64,000 nucleotides of DNA from Isurus oxyrinchus (Eukaryota). Where the stretch lies: positions 14,136,001 through 14,200,000 of the forward strand of contig JANJGN010000006.1 of NCBI GenBank assembly GCA_026770705.1, read 5' to 3'. Position 1 is the first letter of the stretch. Each line of letters opens with the position of its first letter. Made by a program: the position numbers and the translations under genes. Positions 833-32,984 of the stretch are shown here, piece after piece. The notes beneath the pieces were generated by a model that did no database searches, was not told the origin of the DNA, and saw only the letters and a program-made list of their open reading frames with translations.

Positions 833-3290
833 ATGGCTCAGTAAAGTCATCTCAGTCTGACATTTTGAGGATCAGCAAATCCTTTTATGCCGGATTATAT
901 GACGTAAAGCCCACAGACAGCATGGCCTCCCAGTCCTTCCTCTCCGCTATCATGGAGGTCTTAGACGACAGTACACGGGAGAGCTTGGACAAACCGGTAA
1001 CTCCTGATGAACTGACTAAGGCCCTTGAGTCCTTCGAGAAGAGTAAAACTCCCGGAAGCGACGGCTTGCCGGCGGAGTTGTATTCGGCTCTGTGGGACTG
1101 GATCGGCCCAGACCTGCTAGAAGTGTACGAGAGTATGCTCCTGGCCGGCAGTATGTCAGAATCCATGAGGAAAGGCATTATCACCCTCATCTACAAGCAC
1201 AAGGGGGAAAGGGAGGAAATTAGAAATTGGTGACCCATTTCACTGTTGAATGTGGACTATAAGATTCTGTCCAAGGTCATCGCCAATCGGGTCAAATCCG
1301 CTCTGGAATTGGTGATCCACCCTGACCAGACCTGCACTGTGCCGGGCAGGAAGATCTCTGGCAGCCTTGTGCTGCTCAGGGAAACGATTGCCTATGTACA
1401 GGACAGGGGTGTGGATACCTGCCTCATCAGCCTGGATCTGGAGAAGGCCTTTGACAGAATATCACACACCTACATAGTGGATGTGCTCTCCAAAATGGGG
1501 TTTGGAGAGGGAATTCGCAATTGGATCCAACTGCTCTACACTAACATCAGTAGCGCAGTCTCAATCAATGGGTGGGAATCAGAAAGCTTTCCTATTAAAT
1601 CTGGAGTCAGGCAGGGCTGCCCTCTCTCCCCTGTCCTGTTTGTGTGTTGCATAGAACCCTTTGCTGAGTCCATCAGGAAGAATCTGGGAATAAGAGGAGT
1701 GACGATCCCAGGCAGTGGAGGCACTCAGGTCAAAGCCTCTCTGTACATGGACGATGTCACTGTCTTCTGCTCAGATCCGCTGTCGGTGCACAGACTGATC
1801 CACATCTGCGACCGGTTCGAACTGGCCTCAGGAGCCAAGATAAATTGTGGGAAGAGCGAGGCCATGTTCTTCGGGAACTGGGCTGGCCGATCCTTTGTCC
1901 CCTTCACCGTCAGGACTGACGGCCTGAAGGTGCTGGGGATATGGTTCGGAGGGACCAGGGCATGCGTTAGAAACTGGAAAGAGCGAGTGTCTATGGTGAA
2001 AAGAAAACTGGACATGTGGGAGCAACACTCCCTCTCCATTGCGGATAAGAACCTGGTCATCAGGTGTGAGGCACTCTTGCTGTTGCTGTACGTGGCGCAG
2101 GTCTGGCCCATTCCAGACTCCTGCGCGATGGCGATCACCCGAGCCATCTTCCGCTTTATCTGGAGGTTGAAAATGGATCGTGTCCGCAGGGACGCGATGT
2201 ACAAGCCTCTAGATAAAGGGGGAAAAAACAATGCCCAACATCACCCTCATACTGATGGCCACCTTTGTGTGTGGCTGCATCAAGCTGTGCATAGACCCTC
2301 AGTACACAAACACCAAGTGTTACTACGTACTGAGGTTCTACCTGTCCCTGGTGTTGTGAAGGATGGATCTGGCCACGCTGCCATGGAACGCTCCAAGTAG
2401 TTGGACCGTACCACCTGTTCCTCGTGGAAAAATTTATGCAGAGAAACAGCTTTGACCGCAAGTCCATCAGGCAGTGGTCGCACGTAACGTCTTAGAGGCC
2501 CTGAGGGAAAAGGAGAGGGTGGATCCTGTGGGATGGTTCCCCGAGCAGACTGTCAAAGTCATTTGGCAGAATGCCTCATCGCCAGAACTTTCCAACAAGC
2601 ACCAAGATGTAACTTGGCTGGTGGTGAGAATGGCCCTCCCCGTCAGATCCATCCTACACACCAGGAGTCTCACCCCCCTCTGCAGGTTGCCCTCAAGGTG
2701 GCTGTGGTGGGGACGAGACCATTGTTCACCTCCTTGTAGATTGTGCCTTTGCAAAGAAGGTCTGGAGAGAGATGCAGTGGTTGCTGTCGAGGTTCATCCC
2801 GAGCAGTTCTGTGACACAGGACTCTGTGCTCTACGGGCTGTTCCCAGGGACACACACCGAGACAACATCAACTGCAGCTGGAGGATCATCACTCTTTGAT
2901 CTGCCCGAAACTTGTTGGTCTTCCAGCGCAAAGAGTTGTCCCCAACCGAGTGTTGCAGACTGGCACATTCCAAAGTCCAGGACTACGTGCTGAGGGACGC
3001 ACTAAAGCTTGGGGCAGCCGCCGCAAAGGCACAATGGGGAAGGGTCGCTGTCTAAGACCTTTCTGCCACAGTGCACCGAGGGGCTGGGAACTGTTGAGAG
3101 CCCCTCAGGATGTACAGCTCAAAATGAATGTTTGCAAATTAGTGTAATATTCATTGATTGTATTGATGCACCTTGTGATACATGTTATAAAAGTTGAATC
3201 TGATTGTACCTTTGTGATGGTGATTTTGAAATGGTTTGGAATGTTCTTCCAGATATTTTATGAATAAAGTATATTTTTCCAAAAAAGAAA
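833..3290 (+). mobile_element. 5'-truncated Tx1/L1-clade LINE
   Basis: ORF2 RT motifs KTPGSDGLPAELY, DLEKAFD, GVRQGCPLSP, YMDD; AATAAA and A-tail at the 3' end; 13-bp TSD AATTAGATTGAAG (820-832, 3291-3303). Confidence 0.92.
865..3055 (+). pseudogene. Tx1 ORF2 reverse transcriptase, disrupted
   Basis: ORFs 865-1233, 1246-2400 and 2474-2899 are one RT gene broken by a TGA at 1231-1233 (NW*PISL) and frameshifts. Confidence 0.88.
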
Positions 3291-4600
3291 AATTAGATTG
3301 AAGCTGCCAGAATTGTTTTTCAGTGATGAATGAGTATATGTACACCCTTCCACTGGAATGTAATTAATTATGTCTCCAGGAATAAGGTTTAGTATTGAGA
3401 ACACTGCTGCATTGTCTCGTGCCACACAACCCTCGTTTGACTTGTTTGGCACTGTGCCTTTTGCTAAATTACTGCATTATGGAAAATAAGTCCAAAACAT
3501 GCATTTCTTCCAGAGTATTAAAGTTTTTTTATAATATTATGTCTCTATTTTTCATTTCAAAATAGAAGATAAAGTAGATGTTGAATCAGGAATTGTCATG
3601 TATTAACAGTAATGTATGCTTTAGAGATACAGCTGGTGATTTTATCACAATTTTCGGCTAGCCAAGACTGATAAATTCAATTCAGGTAGCAAACTTATAG
3701 AATTCCTTACCATCTGGTTTGAACCAGAGGTGAAAGGACAATGTGTTAACCAATTATGGAAACTTACTGATTGTATTTCAACCAGCTGTCTGAACAAACA
3801 AATGCATTGAAATAGTTCAGAAGCGTTTTTTTAAAAAGCTAGCATCTTTGCAATGCAATCTTTTTGTGATACGCTGAGAAAGAAGTACTGACTGCTGATA
3901 GTTCTGGCATTCCTGCTGTGAGTAATGTCAGTCAACCAGGAGAGGCAGTATAAAGTAATGGATGCAATTCTAAGAGGGTGTCAGGCGGACCTGGGAGTTT
4001 AAGATTTTGTCCGGGAGTCACAGATTACCCAAATAAGGGGTCAAACCCTCATGAGTGATTTTAAAGCAGTTTATCAAGGAAGAAGACAACTGAAAACTTC
4101 TGTCAACAGCAAGCACCTGTTTATGTACCTTATTTCTAGATGCTCGTGGGTATCCCATGTCAATCCATTGTTCGATCCCATTTATCCAATCATCGAGAGA
4201 CTGATAATCAAACTAAACTCCTCCTCTGCCCATCACTATTCCCTTAAAACCAAGTCATCTCTTATCGCTTGTTAGGGAATCCTGTTTAACCTTTACTCAG
4301 ACAATTGCTTTAAATATGGATTACAACATCCAACCTTATCAGGTTTGATAATGTCTTCTTTCAGAGCCTGCACTAGAGTCATGTCCTTGGCCAAGCAAGC
4401 AGACCTACACTGTTCTCTGTTTGTCAGCCCAGCTGTCTGCTATGAAATATCTTTTTTTAAATGGAAAAAGAAAAAAAGAGAGTGGTTTCTATAATATTCA
4501 ATACATTTCTTAAGATTATTAAAGTTGTTATACAACCATTTCTTACAAAGTATATGTATGTCATGTTATTATAATGATATAATACCTTGGGCTTATTTAC

Positions 4601-4830
4601 TGTACAAGATACAAGGCACCAGTCACTCATAAGGGATTGGGTAAATACGTTGCTGATTGATTTATTAAGACTAGGCACATGAGAACATTTAAACATAGGT
4701 TTAAATCTTGAAGGCATCAGAGCTTTGTGTGTGCTCTGCTCAAATCAAAAGCGAAACAAAGACTGGATTGCATGACACATTTTCCTTCTAGTGATATCTT
4801 GCTGATACACCTTAAAGGCATATTACAATA
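4601..4830 (-). repeat. Solo Gypsy-type LTR
   Basis: Colinear similarity to the LTR at 24214-24475 (aaggcacca..ctcat..gggatt ... ccttaaaggcatattacaa). Confidence 0.6.
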
Positions 4831-4859
4831 TGTGCACCTATAATTGAACGTGGAAGGCA

Positions 4860-5525
4860 GGTTAAGAAAGGGATAAAATATTCAGAATCTTGTGCTTTAT
4901 AAATAGAAGCATAGAGTACAAAAGCAAGGAAGTTATGGTGAACCTTTGTGAAACATTAGATTGGCTTCAACTAGAGACCAACTAGAGACCAATACTGAGC
5001 ACCATATGTTAGGAAAGATGTGGTGGCATTAGAGACGGTGCAGCAAAGATTTACAATAATTATTCCAGGGATGAGCGACTTCAGTTACATGAATCGTTTG
5101 AAGAAACTGGAGCTGATTTCCTTAGAGAAGACAAGGTTGAAAAGAGATTTCATAGAGGTGTGAAAAACCGTGGAGGATCTGTTTAGAGTAGATAGAGAGA
5201 AACCGTTCCCAATGGATGAAGGATCGAGAACCAGAGGAGACCAATTTAAGGTGAAGAGTAAATAAACCAATAACGACAAGGGGAAACTCTTTTGATGCCA
5301 TCAGTGGTTAGGATTTGGAATGCGCGGTCTGAAAGTATGGTGGAGGTATATTTAATCATGGCTTTCAAAAAGAAAATTTGATAATTATCTGAAGAGAAAA
5401 CAATCACAGGACTACCTGGGAAAGGATGAGGGAATGGGAGTAGCTTATTTGCTCTCGCAGAGAGCCAGTACAGACATGGTGGGCCAAATGGTCTCATTCA
5501 TAGCTGTAACCATTCTATGATTCTC
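4860..5525 (+). mobile_element. CR1 LINE 3' fragment
   Basis: ORF2 C-terminal remnants (IEYKSKEVM, LETVQQRFT, LELISLEKTRL) and an attctatgattct tail. Confidence 0.85.
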
Positions 5526-25787: not shown

Positions 25788-28723
25788 TTGTATCTTTTCC
25801 TGACATCCTCCTGTGGATCCTTCCAGGACCAACGATGGTGTTTCTTCAGCAGTATGTACAAGGGACCAGTACAGTTCATAAGTTGGGTAAAAATTGCCCA
25901 TAGTAGTTTACCATCCCTAAAATTGATTTGAGTTTGGTGATGCTTGTCAGGGAAGGCTTGTTGCCTTAACCTTTTCTTCTGCATGTGTCCCAGCTAGGTA
26001 ATCTCAGTGTCTTAGAAAGTGTATTTCTTCTTGTTTTAGGTGAACTTCCGCTTCTAGAAATCTTTTTAATACCTCCTCTGAGTTTGCTAAATGCTCCCTC
26101 TCTGTTGGTCCAATTATGGGGGCATTGTCAACTGCAACCTGTGGTAGTCCCTGTAGCAGGCTCCCTAACGTCCTTTGAAATATTGCACATTCCGAAGACA
26201 TGCCAAAAGGGAGGCGCCTAGACTAGAATAGGTCTTTGTATGTGTTTATTGTGGCATACTCATGGGATGTGTTATCTAACTCAAGTTGCGGGTACACGTG
26301 GCTCAGATCCAAGTTACTGTAGGATTGACCTCCTGCCAGCTTTGTGTACAAATCTTCAATTCTTGGAATTGGATATTTACCCAACTTGGCGGCCTGGTTA
26401 ACTGTAAGCTTATAATAGCTGCAAATGTGGACGGTTTTATCCGGTTTCAGTATGGGGACAATGGGTGCTGCCCATTCCGAAAATTGAACCGACTGTATGA
26501 TGCCACGTTCCTCCAACCTGTTTAACTCAGCATCCACTTTTACTCTTAATGTATATGGTACTGGTCTTGCCTTAAAAAATCGGGGAGTTGCCTCTGGATC
26601 AACATAAATCTTTGCTTGCAAAACTTTGATTTTTCCTACTTTGTTGCGAAAGACGCTGTTGTATTTTTTCAACAAATCTAGCAATCCCCCTGCCTGCACT
26701 TGACAAATCTCGGACCAATTTAACTTGATTTCTTTTAGCCAAGCACAGCCCAGAAGGCTTGATCCTTCCCCAGTCATATCACTGGGAGCTGGGCTGACTG
26801 CTGCCCATAGCTCACAGGTACCATGGTGAAGCCTTTTACTCCAGTGTAAGTCTTCAACTGGGCAGAAGTTCTCTCCAGGCTCAAGGGTTGGGTACATTTT
26901 CTCAGGTACTGAGACGTGTGCTCACCCATTACTGATGCCCCTGTATCCACATTCATAACGAGAGGCTTCCTGTTCACATGGAGTGTGACAGCAATAAGGT
27001 TTGCCTTGACTGCTTTAAGATTAAAAAGAGAGAATGAATGTCAGAATCAGTTACTTCAGGCCTTTTCATGTTTGTACTTCCAACATCTTTGCTTGCTGGT
27101 TCCTTGACCATCTGGACTTAGCTCTGCACTGCTTTATCAAGTGTCCTCTTTTGCGACAGTAATAGCACTCGGCCTCCTTAAATATATGTTTCAGGAGTGT
27201 GCTCACCCTTCCCCACCCCCGTATCAGTAGCATTTCAACTTCAGGATCACTGTTTAATTGCCTCCAGTATTTTTTTTGATTTCTGGGTGATTGGGAATGA
27301 TTCCCGCCTCGTGGCTACTTCAGTGGTTTTGGTGCCACGCCCAGCTGCAAGTTTCCACCCTAACTGGTAAACGGCGCTGTACTAATTATAGTTTTGATAA
27401 ACGTAGAACTGTAGCTTTTAGAATAATCTGCTGTTGTAAGGTCACGTGATCTGTGTAAACCAAAGTGTTAGCAGTGTGGGGAACCTCCTGGAGAGAGTTG
27501 TTCTTTAGTTTTCAAGTTTGATGCACAAACCTAGCTTCTGCTGCTGTCTTGTAAATAAAGTTCAATATTTCCACCAAGGAAAGCTGCCTGGAAAATCAAC
27601 TCTATTACAAACTGAATGACAAGGATAAATCAGATCCAGTGTTTCCCTTACCAAGCAATTGTGAGTATCTAAGATAATTTTTAAAAAAGGAAGATATACA
27701 CATCTGAGATGCCACAGTTTGGCAGAATTGATCCCTTTGAACCAGCCACAGATGGACAGGTCTCAATATATAGAATGTCTTGCATTCAACTTTCAAGCCA
27801 ACAAAATCACTGGGCAGAAAAAGAGGAGAGCGATTCTCCTGAGTATTTGTGGGAGCAAGACCTACACTTTAATTTGAAGCTTGATGGCCCCCAGTGCCCC
27901 TGAATTGAAGGCCTTCAGTGAATTAGTAGACCTCATTAAGAAACATTTCCAACCCCAGCCCTCAGTCACAATGCAGAGGTTCAGGTTCAAGTCACGGAAT
28001 AGAGCCCCGGGGGAGACCATTGCTACTTACGTGGTGAAATTGAAACAACTAATGGAATATTGTGATTTCGGTGAAACCCTGAATGACATGCTCATGGATC
28101 ATTTAGTCTGTGGTGTGCAGGAGGTTGCTATTCAGTGAAGGTTGCTGACTGAAGTGGATCTTGATTTTACGAAACATTAGAAATAGTGCTTGAAATGAAA
28201 AGCACTGTAAGGGATTCACAAGTGATTCAAGGTGCACAAAATGGCGCCATTTTCCCAGTTCGGTGGGAACGGTCAACCCAAAGTGATGCAAAAAGCTGGG
28301 ACTCCACCGTGAAGCGGGTAAGGGCCCCCGCTAACTGAAAACTTAGAGGAAACAGCTTAGCAGCAAATTCGAATATTAATCTTTATCGACATGGAAACAA
28401 TCATATTCCTAACAATTGGCAATTTAAAAAGGTGGAGTGTTATTTTTGTCACAAAAGTGGGCACATATTGAAACATTGCAAGGCGAGATTAAAGGCTTCC
28501 AGGCAACAAATGGAGTGCAGTGATGTATATTGTGTGGGAGAGCCAGAAACAACCAATTCTGATATTTATTCCTCATTCAACATGAAAGCTGGGAAGACAG
28601 AGTCAATTACTGTCACATTGCAAGCGAATGGTAAAACCTTAAAAATGGAAGTAGATGCTGGTACTTCTACCACTGTAGTTGGAGAACATATTTTCAAATA
28701 TTTAAATAAAGGTGATCAACAAT

Positions 28724-30353
28724 CAACATAGCCCTAGCTATGCCTGTCTCTTTATGGGATATGTGGAACATTCCTTGTTCCAGTCCTACTCCGGCCCCCT
28801 CCCACAACTCTTTCTCCAGTACATCGATGATTAGTTTGGTGCTGCTTCATGCTCTCGCCTGGACCTGGAAAAATTCATTAATTTTGCTTCCAATTTCCAC
28901 CCCTCCATCATTTTCACATGGACCATCTCTGACACTTCCCTTCCCTTCCTTGATCTCTCTGTCTCAATCTCTGGTGATAGACTGTCCACCAATATCCATT
29001 ACAAGCCTACCGACTCCCACAGCTACCTCGACTACAGCTCCTCACACCCCGCTTCCTGTAAGGACTCCATCCCGTTCTCTCAGATCCTTCGCCACCATCG
29101 CATCTGTTCTGATGATGCCACTTTCAAAAACAGTTCCTCTAACATGTCCTTCTTCTTCCTTAACCGAGGTTTTCCACCCACGGTGGTTGACAGGGCCCTC
29201 AACCATGTCCGGCCCATCTGCGCATCTGCCCTCACAGCTTCCTTTCCCTCCCAGACACATAATAGAGTCCCCCTTGTCCTCACTTATCACTCCACTAGCC
29301 TCCGCATTCAAAGGATCATCCTCTGCCATTTCTGCCAACTCCAGCATGATGCCACCACCAAACACATCTTCCCTTCACCCTCCCCGGTGGCATTCCGCAG
29401 GGATCGTTCCCTCCGGGACACCCTGGTCCACTCCTTCATCACCCCCTGCACCTCAACCCCCTCCCATGGCACCTTCCCATGCAACCGCAGAAGGTGCAAC
29501 ACCTGCACCTTCACTTCCTCTCTCCTCACCGTCCAAGGGCCCAAACAGTCCTTTCAAGTGAAGCAGCATTTCACTTGCTCTTCCCTCAATTTAGTCTACT
29601 GCAGTCGTTGTTCCCAATTAGGTTTCCTCTACATTGGAGAAACCAAACACAGACTGGGTGACCGCTTTGCAGAACACCTTCAGTCTGTCCGCAAGCATTA
29701 CCTGGACCCCCCTGTTGCTTGCCATTTCAACACTCCACGCTGCTCTCATGCCCAGATATGCGTCCTTGGCCTGCTGCAATGTTCCAGTGAAGCTCGACGC
29801 AAACCGGAGGAACAGCACCTCATCTTCCGACTAGGCAATTTACAGCCTTCTGGACTGAATATTGAGTTCAACAATTTTAGATCATTAACTCTCTCCTCCA
29901 TCCGCACCCCCTTTCTATTTCCCCCCTTTTTTTTCCAATAATTTATATAGATTTTTCTTTTCCCACCTATTTCCATTATTTTAAATGTATTTTCATCCAT
30001 TGTTTTATCTCTACCTTTTCGTCTTTTTTGATCCATTCACCCCACTCCACCCCCACTAGGGCTATCTGTACCTTGCTTGTCCTGCTTTCTAACCTTAATT
30101 AGCGTATTCCTTAGATAGTAGCACCACCTTCAACACCTCTTTGTCCTTTTGCCTGTGACATCTTTTGGTTATCTATACCTATCACTGGCTCTACCTGTCC
30201 CACCCCCCCCTTAAACCAGATTATATTTCACCTCTCTTCTATTTTTACTTAGTTCTGTTGACGGGTCATTCAGACTCGAAACATTAACTGTGTCCCTCTC
30301 CGCAGATACTGCCAGACTTGCTGAGTTTTTCCAGGTATTTTTGATTTTGTTTT
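28724..30353 (+). mobile_element. 5'-truncated Penelope-like retroelement (RT C-terminus, GIY-YIG endonuclease, terminal repeat)
   Basis: YIDD, LPFLDL, YLDYSSSHP, NLVYC..C...YIGETKHRLGDRFAEH, QPSGLN; direct repeat TGATCAACAAT at 28713-28723 and 30354-30364. Confidence 0.92.
30251..30289 (+). ncRNA. Hammerhead-like motif in the Penelope 3' repeat (CUGUUGA variant)
   Basis: AGUU-CUGUUGA-C-GGGUC-AUUCA-GACUC-GAAA-CAUU-AACU. Confidence 0.55.
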
Positions 30354-30649
30354 TGATCAACAATTACATTTGGAACAAACCTCTGCCAAGTTGAAAACAT
30401 ACACAGGCAAAGAAATTCAGGTAAAAGGCATCAGTAGAGTACATGTTTATTATAGACACCAAACAGCACAACTGCCGGTGATGGTATTGGAAAGCAGAGG
30501 GTCAAGCCTCCTAGGTCGAAATTGACTGAGGGAAATTAACCTTGATTGGCCAGTGAGATTTCAAAAGGAAGGGGGAAGAGTTCCTGAGTTGGAAAAGGAA
30601 CAAGGCAAGGTACTTCAGAAAGAGCCTGGAAAGTCCAAGGACCACAACT

Positions 30650-31066
30650 GGATGGAAAAGGTGTGTGTAGCCATTCAGCAACCTGAAGAAATGAAGACTG
30701 TCTTAAATAACAACATGGAAGAACAGCTGAAGAAACTCAAGGAGGTTCTGCTGAATTACAGAATTCAAGATGAAGCAAGTGAGTTTCGCAAAGAAAAGGA
30801 AAACCTGTCGAAAGAACTTCACACACTACGAGGATCCCTCAGGTCAAATTTCGTACCTCTGGAGGTAAAAATTGCGAAGGGAAACAGGAAGAATTTAAAG
30901 CTTCTTTGAACAAACTGAAGAACCAGTTGACAGAGAAGCTGCAGCAATTTTCAAGGTTCCAGGAGGAAGCCAACAGATACAAGAAGGAGTCAGAAGAGCT
31001 GAAGAATCAGCTGAATGAAGCTAAAGAGGCCTTGGAAGCAAAAGCCAAAGAATTTTCCAAGATATG
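30650..31066 (+). pseudogene. Host-like coiled-coil fragment, UACA/RAI14/ANKRD24-family-like, inside the LTR element
   Basis: EVLLNYRIQDE..SKELHTLRGSLRSNFVPLE, then after a frameshift CEGKQEEFKASLNKLKNQLTEKLQQFSRFQEEANRYKKESEELKNQL. Colinear with the UACA coiled-coil as I recall it; no search run. Confidence 0.62.
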
Positions 31067-32984
31067 AGTGGATAGTGGGTAACTCAACTACTGAACTATG
31101 ACAGGTTACGATTTCACCTGCGAGAAGTCTGGCCGACAGTAAGGCCATAAAGAAGGCCTAGACTAAACTCTGTGGTAGGAAGAAGAAGACAAAAAGGAAG
31201 GTTCCGAAAAGACAATAAAAGGCAGGAATGAAAAGTTGACCGGTGAATTGTTGGAAATTAGATTTGCTCATTTCCTATTTCACTACAGAACAGCCCCCCA
31301 CACTATGACAGGTGCAATACCTGCAGAATTACTGATGAGGTGCTGTCTTCGGACAAGGCTAAGTTTGACAATTCCCAATTTAGAGGGGAAGGTGGAGAAA
31401 ATTCAAGGGAACCAAAAGCGACTAATGATTTGCACAGTCTTGAGCGACAGTTTACTGTAGAGAAGCAGTTTATATAAGGAATTTCGGTGGAGGACCAAAG
31501 TGGTTACCTGGGTAAAGTAAGCTCTGTGACCAGACCATTGTCGTACCACGTGGAAGTGGAGGGCCAGATTACCCAGAAGCACGTGGATCACTTAAGAAGA
31601 AGGGAGATACCCCAACAAAATTATGTTCCACCTGTAACCATTGCTGAACCCGTGGCTCCTGTTGAAGTTACTCAACCAAGGATAGACATGCCTGATGTCT
31701 CTGTCAGAGTAGAAGACACTGAGTTGCCTGTGCCTAATGAGGTACCTGATGTTAATGCGGTTCCAGAGAACATGGTTCCTGTCAAAGAATCAGAAGTCGT
31801 GGAGCTACGACGTTTCACACAGATCAGGAAACTACCTGAATGACTTGAACTCGTAATGTTATGACCTGTATAAATATTGTAATGTCATGAGATAAATATC
31901 CTTGTAAATACAAAATGTACAGAAAAGTTAAAGGGGGAGGAATGTGGTAATTATAGTTTTGATAAAAGTAGGACAGTAGTTTTAAGGATAATTCTGTGTT
32001 GTAAGATCACATGACTTGTGTAAACTAATGAGTTTGCAGCTTGGTGAACCTCTGGGAGAGAGCTTTTCTTTAGTTACAGAGTTTGATGCACACATGTAGC
32101 TGCTGCTGCTGCCTTATAAATAAAGTTCAATTTTTCCACCAAGAAAACTTGCCTGGAAAATCAACTCCAAAGCAGACGCCATTTTGCAATCTCTGTAGCT
32201 CCTGCAAATCTTTCTCAGTGCCTTCCATGGCCTGTACCATCTCCATAGATTATCTAAAAGTTATATCGACTTCTGCAAGTAATTGAAGCTAAATGGCATT
32301 GTTGTACATGCCACAAACTAAACGGTCCTGTAGCATGCCATTCAAGGTCCCTCCAAAAGCAGAATGCTCTGACAATTGCTTCAACTTAAAAATATAAATC
32401 ATGATTGATTCGCCTGGGATCCTCACCCTTGTATTAACTTTGAATCTTTGCATAACGATCGATGGATTGGCCCTTTGCTAAATACCCAAGTTCACTGAAC
32501 AGTTTGGAGTTGGGTACGGTTGGGAATGTGAAACTGCGAATAAAGTCAAAGGTTTGACTCCCACAGATGCTCAAGAGAATTGCTTTGCACTTTGCCTCCT
32601 CCCCTGCTTAGTTGGCCTGAAAATAAAACCTGGGGCGCTCAATGTATTGACTCCAGTCCTCCATGGAGGAGTCAAATGGTCGATCCTCCTGAAGAGATGC
32701 ATCCTAGTGAGTATGTATATATTTTTTCTTTCCCTCTTTAAAACAAGATTCTCAAGTTGTAGGGTGAGAGGTAGCGCCAGGATCAATTATCATTGTCGCC
32801 AGATGTTGAGATGTACTATTGAGTGGCTTCTGTAGTTGGACAATGAACTTTATTTACAGGGTTGTTGGATTAGCTGTCTGCTTCTAGCAAGGCTACACTA
32901 TCTTTATGAGATTCCCATGCTCGGTGTTCATAGCTGTTCTGACCACGTGGCCCTTACTCAATTAGGTTGTCCTTAAAGCAACAT

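Follow-up and report, generated by a model that had tools for sequence, protein, structure and literature searches.

The window examined in this study is a stretch of 64,000 nucleotides from Isurus oxyrinchus (assembly GCA_026770705.1, contig JANJGN010000006.1, positions 14,136,001 to 14,200,000, forward strand). It holds a decayed copy, about 3.1 kb long, of a Gypsy long terminal repeat (LTR) retrotransposon, here called family A, which is nested inside an older Gypsy element. The reverse transcriptase (RT), RNase H and integrase core of A have been replaced by host exonic sequence, in sense, from the gene UACA. It is likely that A was a helper-dependent Gypsy element whose Gag-protease frame ran into second-hand pieces of UACA, with the cargo acting as a filler that kept the frame and not as a working domain. 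The features are given in positions of the window; family P, its loci L119 and L123, and family B with its subfamily B-del are described below, and L041 is the locus of the host UACA exon.

27373..27377, + strand: target-site duplication, 5' copy (GGCGC)
27378..27609, + strand: 5' LTR of 232 bp, TG...CA; the family P LTR is ~83% identical
27612..27629, + strand: primer-binding-site-like motif, mutated in the window copy; position and motif are common to other A copies and to L119/L123
27709..28723, + strand: decayed gag with capsid and zinc knuckle, followed by the beginning of the aspartic protease; PF03732 at E 6.6e-5, PF13975 in L016 and L002
28724..30354, + strand: later Penelope-like insertion; GIY-YIG match at E 0.003, 10-bp duplication at 28714-28723 and 30355-30364
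30355..30525, + strand: remaining protease, with a TGA at 30523
30526..30651, + strand: linker specific to the family, and fuzzy 5' junction; 0.26-0.40 net diverged from P, with the protease upstream nearly identical
30652..31006, + strand: UACA piece 1; host exon L041:~4196-4548, 76% DNA identity, private 5-nt insertion near 30866
30998..31006, + strand: 9-nt microhomology at the 450-nt in-frame deletion, common to subfamily B-del
31007..31097, + strand: UACA piece 2, with a private 8-nt deletion; host L041:~4999-5097
31098..31218, + strand: remnant of the 'mid' segment of family B; a family-wide -1 shift leads to a Lys/Arg-rich tail and a TAA at the 3' junction
31219..31925, + strand: integrase end and 3' untranslated part, from the parent family P; 85% to L123 from 31219
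~31926..31942, + strand: polypurine tract
31943..32174, + strand: 3' LTR
32175..32179, + strand: target-site duplication, 3' copy (GACGC)
26000..27372, - strand: older Gypsy, left part (protease-RT); the flank continues in locus L131
32180..32990, - strand: older Gypsy, right part (gag start); the flank continues in locus L131

Family A and its autonomous relative

The first-pass annotation of the window had delimited one insertion by its LTRs, target-site duplication and polypurine tract (PPT). The LTR pair (27378-27609 and 31943-32174, 82% identical) and the PPT stood, but the two copies of the 5-bp duplication match in four of five letters; in L017 and L028, two other copies of A, the 5-bp duplication is perfect. 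The older Gypsy carries the window element in its gag, and both of its flanks continue at one point in locus L131. One contig from the DNA run of a second organism spans the end of the window 3' LTR; 37 of its letters lie within the element, and 8 of 313 letters differ. As had also been proposed, a Penelope-like insert divides the protease, and other A copies have no insert at that position. The gag of the window copy has additional stops and one frameshift.

A search of the genome (4.98 Gb) with positions 30560-31260 as query gave 4575 first-look candidates; all 40 that were scored were matches, and in the 39 besides the window copy most of the query aligned at 83-86%. The gag-protease-cargo-tail order is kept in 27 of the 29 other A loci fetched, and the remaining two are truncated. 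A 22-mer specific for the family has 341 exact matches in the genome (control 0), which sets at least 341 copies. Of 30 A loci, 14 contain this 22-mer, and it is absent from each of the 80 P, B or other autonomous loci; together, these counts suggest ~700 copies or more. The protease passes straight into the cargo in all 30 A loci and the tail resumes past the integrase core. Lacking an RT, RNase H and integrase core of its own, A is not an autonomous LTR retrotransposon. The helper-dependent element that had been proposed is supported, in many copies. Where LTR pairs align over long stretches, their divergence is 10-22%, and the ratio of nonsynonymous to synonymous rates (omega) among A copies is ~1.05, as in neutral decay; family A is old and dead. 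One subfamily (L002, L025, L030), which forms a single clade (100/99), has a shorter tail, and its members share a large deletion that removed 5' LTR and leader sequence.

Twenty RT-bearing loci were fetched among 150 matches. L119 and L123 (family P) have an LTR, gag, protease and tail in common with A at 78-84%, and additionally an RT, RNase H and integrase core. This comparison bore out the absence of these domains from the window element. The domains of L123 and L119 (PF00078, PF17919/PF17917, PF00665) follow the Gypsy order gag-protease-RT-RNase H-integrase, and the backbone common to P and A has the TG...CA LTR pair, 5-bp target duplication, primer-binding site (PBS) and PPT of a Gypsy element. 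The integrase tail, formerly placed from ~31205, starts at ~31219, after a TAA at 31216-31218; between this tail and the PPT there is no room for env in A, L119 or L123. Three RT matches (G000:C2:93583648, 93641070 and 93698493) have equal scores and a spacing of ~57 kb, which points to segmental repeats in tandem or to an artefact of the assembly.

Compared with 28 further P copies, the gag-protease of A has a net divergence of only ~0.015, while the linker behind the protease reaches 0.26-0.40. A probably re-took its LTR, gag, protease and tail from P later, since these parts agree with those of P and the linker and cargo have diverged far. The fusion in A would then predate its present backbone, which recombination with P would have refreshed.

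An in-frame Gag-protease-cargo fusion had been claimed, with the reservation that an apparent 1-nt indel near 30630 might break it. The fusion held: one A copy has a natural frame of 508 codons that spans the capsid, zinc knuckle, protease and cargo, and the protease-cargo junction is in frame in 24 of 30 copies, the six exceptions being small indels at five different places. The suspected indel does not disrupt the frame of the family. The frameshift reported within the cargo is present near 30866, but it is a 5-nt insertion private to the window copy. The stop of A at the 3' junction shares the cargo frame in 14 of 26 resolved copies, after a basic tail; it is the family-wide -1 shift at 31150-31218 that converts purine-rich sequence into this Lys/Arg-rich tail, which we take to resemble a nuclear localisation or RNA-binding signal. 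The gag-protease has open frames in copies of A; 13 of 27 A copies retain the catalytic motif, as do 11 of 28 P copies. The omega of the gag-protease is 0.89 among A versus 0.79 among P copies, and the stem is too short for a selection test. A search of the Protein Data Bank with the fusion frame gave no match. No RNA run was listed as containing the element. Contigs from two runs cover A and bridge the protease and cargo; their status as RNA is a guess, and they are not used as evidence here.

Origin of the cargo in families B, C and D

The proposed donor, UACA, was confirmed by all eight homolog matches of the cargo (best E 5e-33); a comparison of the UACA piece with the sequence atlas gave no informative match. 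The large UACA exon of the host lies at L041:~2690-5416 and is open for 911 codons; its protein is 98.8% identical to UACA of Carcharodon and 72-84% to that of other sharks. The cargo had been described as colinear with UACA, which proved incorrect. It consists of two pieces of this one exon (~4196-4548 and 4990-5097), which meet at a 9-nt repeat across a 450-nt in-frame deletion, and then of ~110 nt of non-UACA sequence. This mapping showed piece 2 in 29 of 30 A loci, the window copy being the exception.

When the part of UACA that is missing from A was used as query, the host exon and 149 other matches were found, and the 18 non-host loci fetched all belonged to another family, B (L043-L060, L082-L111, L174-L178, L180-L181; 2633 first-look candidates). 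It is a ~4.2-kb LTR family with ~250-bp LTRs different from those of A, its own PBS and PPT, and a long chimeric frame in the order gag-like piece, further segment, UACA (3551-5101, 1.5 kb), a coiled coil that we call 'mid', and spliced TPR. The 4548/4990 deletion in UACA is common to 10 of 30 further B loci (subfamily B-del) and 29 of 30 A loci, and the alignment of A with B extends 60-120 nt past the end of UACA into a common non-UACA continuation. The window copy aligns without a break to the B-del copy L108 across 30652-31134. At 35 diagnostic columns where B differs from the host, A has the base of B in 27, that of the host in five and another in three. In a tree of 59 rows, A forms one clade (100/99) within a branch (99/97) that contains 22 B copies. 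Because of the shared breakpoint, the shared continuation and the 27 of 35 shared derived columns, the cargo of A is assigned to B, and it very probably reached A through another element family in this way. Direct capture from the host gene, as formerly assumed, is largely refuted by the same three observations. That A took UACA from a host transcript independently of B is very improbable, even though the approximately unbiased (AU) test does not reject a tree that holds B together apart from A (p = 0.21). As that test alone does not reject such a tree, the shared breakpoints outweigh the tree here.

The TPR portion of B (PF25481, E 3e-12) is made up of nine host segments, end to end, from 17 kb of the TPR gene. 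Five of its joins lie exactly on GT-AG splice sites in 9/9, 22/23, 17/17, 25/26 and 12/12 resolved copies of 30, i.e., in 85 of 87 resolved cases (150 cases, of which 63 were unresolvable). Joins at splice sites are direct evidence of the capture of an mRNA. UACA was taken from a single exon, and its piece therefore offers no such intron test.

The 14 matches fetched in a search with one TPR exon comprised 11 copies of a further family, C, two of family D and one of B. Family C (L162-L171, L173, L182-L211; 863 first-look candidates) carries TPR cDNA that begins with exon 1, and it lacks both UACA and any part of B. Intron loss is thus found for TPR in both B and C. TPR begins at exon 1 straight after a protease-like motif in 30 of 30 further C loci, and of 21 resolved copies, 18 have this protease-like segment joined in frame to the start codon of TPR. 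Family D (L172, L179) has a B-like gag, 'mid', a less-deleted TPR and only a remnant of UACA. In a 36-row tree of TPR, C is paraphyletic (97/90) with the least-deleted copies basal, and B and D form a clade (100/99) inside C; the TPR of B is a shortened version of the C cDNA. No second TPR gene is evident: PF07926 gave one match, and all 14 fetched TPR-exon matches were element copies. On these sequences, the order is from host TPR mRNA to C, from C to B, which gained UACA and 'mid', and from B to A.

The gag-protease of A gave no tblastn match in the backbones of B or C. Both have LTR pairs, a PBS and a PPT, their gag pieces have no Pfam match, and their motifs presumably are those of Gypsy elements; with this anatomy, B and C are putative Gypsy families. 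The 'mid' of B, a 340-nt segment between UACA and TPR (L100:2167-2496, minus strand), looks like a third host coiled-coil cargo. Homolog searches for its donor (proteins up to 2000 aa) returned nothing, a comparison with the sequence atlas returned only unspecific coiled-coil matches, and there was no match within the host TPR or UACA stretches. A genome search showed no evident host exon among the 150 matches listed, and the six that were fetched were all B copies. One B copy, L174, has an inverted duplicate of a TPR and tail segment at 4306-4890. UACA-bearing pieces also lie beside or inside other Gypsy copies (L211:~3120; L113:9593-9983; L129) and could be a source of chimeric transcripts.

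Probable hand-over between families and the open frame

The relay very probably proceeded as follows. Family C captured spliced TPR cDNA behind its protease-like segment; B then acquired the TPR of C and added the UACA exon and 'mid', and the UACA part of one B subfamily moved onto the P backbone, where it replaced RT, RNase H and the integrase core and gave rise to A. Each hand-over would have taken place during reverse transcription, by template switching between RNAs packaged together in a shared particle, a mechanism that we hold to be probable. A would have been copied by the enzymes of P, from which its LTR, gag, protease and tail would have been regained by later recombination. Fragments of host genes are thus likely to have been passed between unrelated elements.

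A hand-over from B to A at the level of DNA, through repair or gene conversion between genomic copies, would be consistent with the fuzzy junctions of A and with the origin of UACA from one exon, which makes an intron test of that piece impossible. It is nevertheless quite unlikely: the cargo is always in sense and replaces internal pol, the LTRs, PBS and PPT are intact, and TPR is spliced. Moreover, the pattern is that of template switching in the available excerpt of Tan et al. (PMC5131818). Microhomologies are clear at the internal deletions of the cargo, where the overlaps measure 7-15 nt; at the two outer junctions of A and the junction of C there are only candidates.

The joints of the cargoes are in frame throughout. 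This applies to five of five joins (C protease-TPR, B gag side-UACA, UACA-'mid', 'mid'-TPR and A linker-UACA) and to nine of nine deletions (282, 126, 450, 147 and 534 nt in UACA; four in TPR). The chance of an in-frame joint was put at 0.40-0.46 for matches between element and cargo, 0.5-0.7 between cargoes and 0.68-0.86 within the UACA exon, so that in-frame internal deletions by themselves are weak evidence; for all 14 joints, the joint chance is ~0.003 by a rough hand calculation. Had the same relay carried the cargo as neutral baggage, purine-rich coiled-coil codons would have supplied in-frame microhomologies, and by chance 68-86% of the microhomology deletions in the UACA exon and 40-69% of the joins between sequences would be in frame. 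The purine content of the cargo (64%, versus 55% for pol), the absent amino-acid constraint and the neutrality of the B copies fit this explanation. However, 14 of 14 in-frame joints are improbable under it, and the C fusion keeps the frame where it meets TPR, immediately before the start codon; we regard neutral baggage as possible, though rather unlikely.

A dN/dS check of the cargo had been suggested, and it gave no robust selection on the protein. On the stem of A, fixed nonsynonymous and synonymous changes (25/10) do not differ from private ones (236/87; count test, p = 0.49), which speaks for no amino-acid constraint, and the B copies, with an omega of 0.95-1.1, decay neutrally. Uncorrected dN/dS looked like purifying selection and was rejected as mostly transition bias. 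Likelihood estimates of omega are sensitive to composition, with shifted frames at 0.6-1.2. Compared with the host, B has 39 nonsynonymous and 24 synonymous fixed differences in UACA (net dS 0.11) and 37 and 40 in TPR (net dS 0.27), where private differences number 562 and 162. The higher divergence of TPR fits an older capture. As the synonymous excess over the host includes the host's own purifying branch, the two are not separable without an outgroup.

A coiled coil that works as a domain, whether cut off or retained, might dimerise the protease or tether particles to the nuclear pore or cytoskeleton, thereby outcompeting the helper. The N-terminal coil of TPR dimerises kinases in TPR-MET. 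The cargoes found (TPR, UACA and 'mid') are all coiled coils that follow gag or protease with their own frame kept, on three backbones; A ends in a basic tail, and both the strongly synonymous fixed differences of TPR and the distance-based omega on the A stem point in this direction. Yet the count test on that stem is flat, the synonymous excess of TPR and UACA includes the purifying evolution of the host, and the cargo was repeatedly shortened and swapped, with D losing most of UACA. A working domain is unlikely, and we are equally doubtful that three unrelated shark Gypsy lineages converged on a fusion of Gag, with or without protease, to a host coiled coil, and traded the module (first TPR, of the nuclear basket, then UACA) because it gave the defective element a replication edge over the helper.

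Our preferred reading remains that of a frame-keeping filler, in which variants with an unbroken frame would have spread better, e.g., because they packaged the RNA that encoded them or avoided nonsense-mediated decay. Selection at the level of RNA, through the avoidance of decay or translation-linked packaging, would then account for a frame that stays open while its amino acids vary freely; whether the open frame was selected, as opposed to arising by chance or through protein function, is evenly balanced. Several observations weigh against this reading. In addition to the result of the AU test, B-del is not a single clade, and the sister of A within B is unsettled in the tree. The 5' junction of A is not placeable to the base, and its microhomology is a candidate. 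The in-frame count is rough, as some joints come from single natural frames and the joints are partly dependent; two ambiguous deletions (L045, L175) were excluded from it, and the family-wide -1 shift ~20 codons before the stop of A is an exception to the kept frame. On the cargo stem of A, the distance-based, transition-corrected omega is 0.51-0.58 (upper limits 0.94-1.06; shifted frames ~1.5-2.4), which conflicts with the count test and the likelihood estimates. Moreover, the hand-overs would demand co-packaging across unrelated Gypsy lineages, and the gag of B is a short gag-like piece with no Pfam match; with only such a piece, cis-packaging cannot explain B. Overall, no robust selection on the cargo amino acids was observed, and constraint was not demonstrated.

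Comparison with known systems and significance

The comparisons with published cases refer to available excerpts of the papers cited. LTR-mediated retroposition in metazoans, including multi-gene chimeras and secondary retroposition, was described by Tan et al. 2016 (PMC5131818). As in those cases, pieces of host mRNA in the shark elements replace internal open reading frames (ORFs) of an LTR element, in sense and with candidate microsimilarity at the switch points. The cases of Tan et al. (PMC5131818) are young and few-copy, whereas the shark families reach hundreds of copies each, have Gag-protease fusions and carry a cargo that crosses unrelated backbones. Extra ORFs are known in plant LTR elements (PMC7264820), and family B is the closest likeness to maize Bs1 (PMC5131818, PMC7264820), in which one hybrid frame of three host genes with shared switch points lies in an LTR element. 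Unlike the shark families, Bs1 has one to five copies, one backbone and one of its three pieces out of frame. The crocodilian endogenous retroviruses (ERVs) with KIT-ligand or nectin3 (Chong et al. 2014, PMC4299795) are likewise vertebrate LTR elements that spread captured host mRNA. They are, however, true ERVs of 6-9 copies with near-whole ORFs under purifying selection and no relay, while the shark case concerns Gypsy elements that carry fragments with no clear amino-acid constraint. The semi-autonomous RLG_Sabrina/WHAM elements and the Angela host switches of wheat (Wicker et al., PMC9744471) similarly involve gag-protease-only elements of high copy number with a proposed LTR exchange with autonomous partners; their extra segments have no wheat gene donor and replace the gag-protease rather than extend it.

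In acutely transforming (transducing) retroviruses, a fusion of Gag with host sequence takes the place of pol and the genome depends on a helper; the likeness that was first drawn to them holds for the architecture. It does not extend to the missing env, the Gypsy backbone and domain order, the spread in the germline and the structural coiled-coil cargo with no robust selection and no demonstrated benefit. In the literature, outside subscription journals, supplements, Repbase and Dfam, we found neither a relay from one backbone to another nor a shark element that carries UACA or TPR.

That LTR elements capture genes was already known, mostly from rare events with few copies. In the shark families, captures were amplified hundreds of times, extended by more genes and passed between unrelated lineages, with a ladder of shared deletions. 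The families offer fossil evidence for RNA recombination between different Gypsy lineages in the vertebrate germline and a natural test case for why cargo frames remain open. They also leave many false 'UACA' and 'TPR' fragments in shark genomes, which are able to mislead gene annotation. If the coiled coil was indeed selected, it would represent a mobile, selected cargo cassette in the vertebrate germline.

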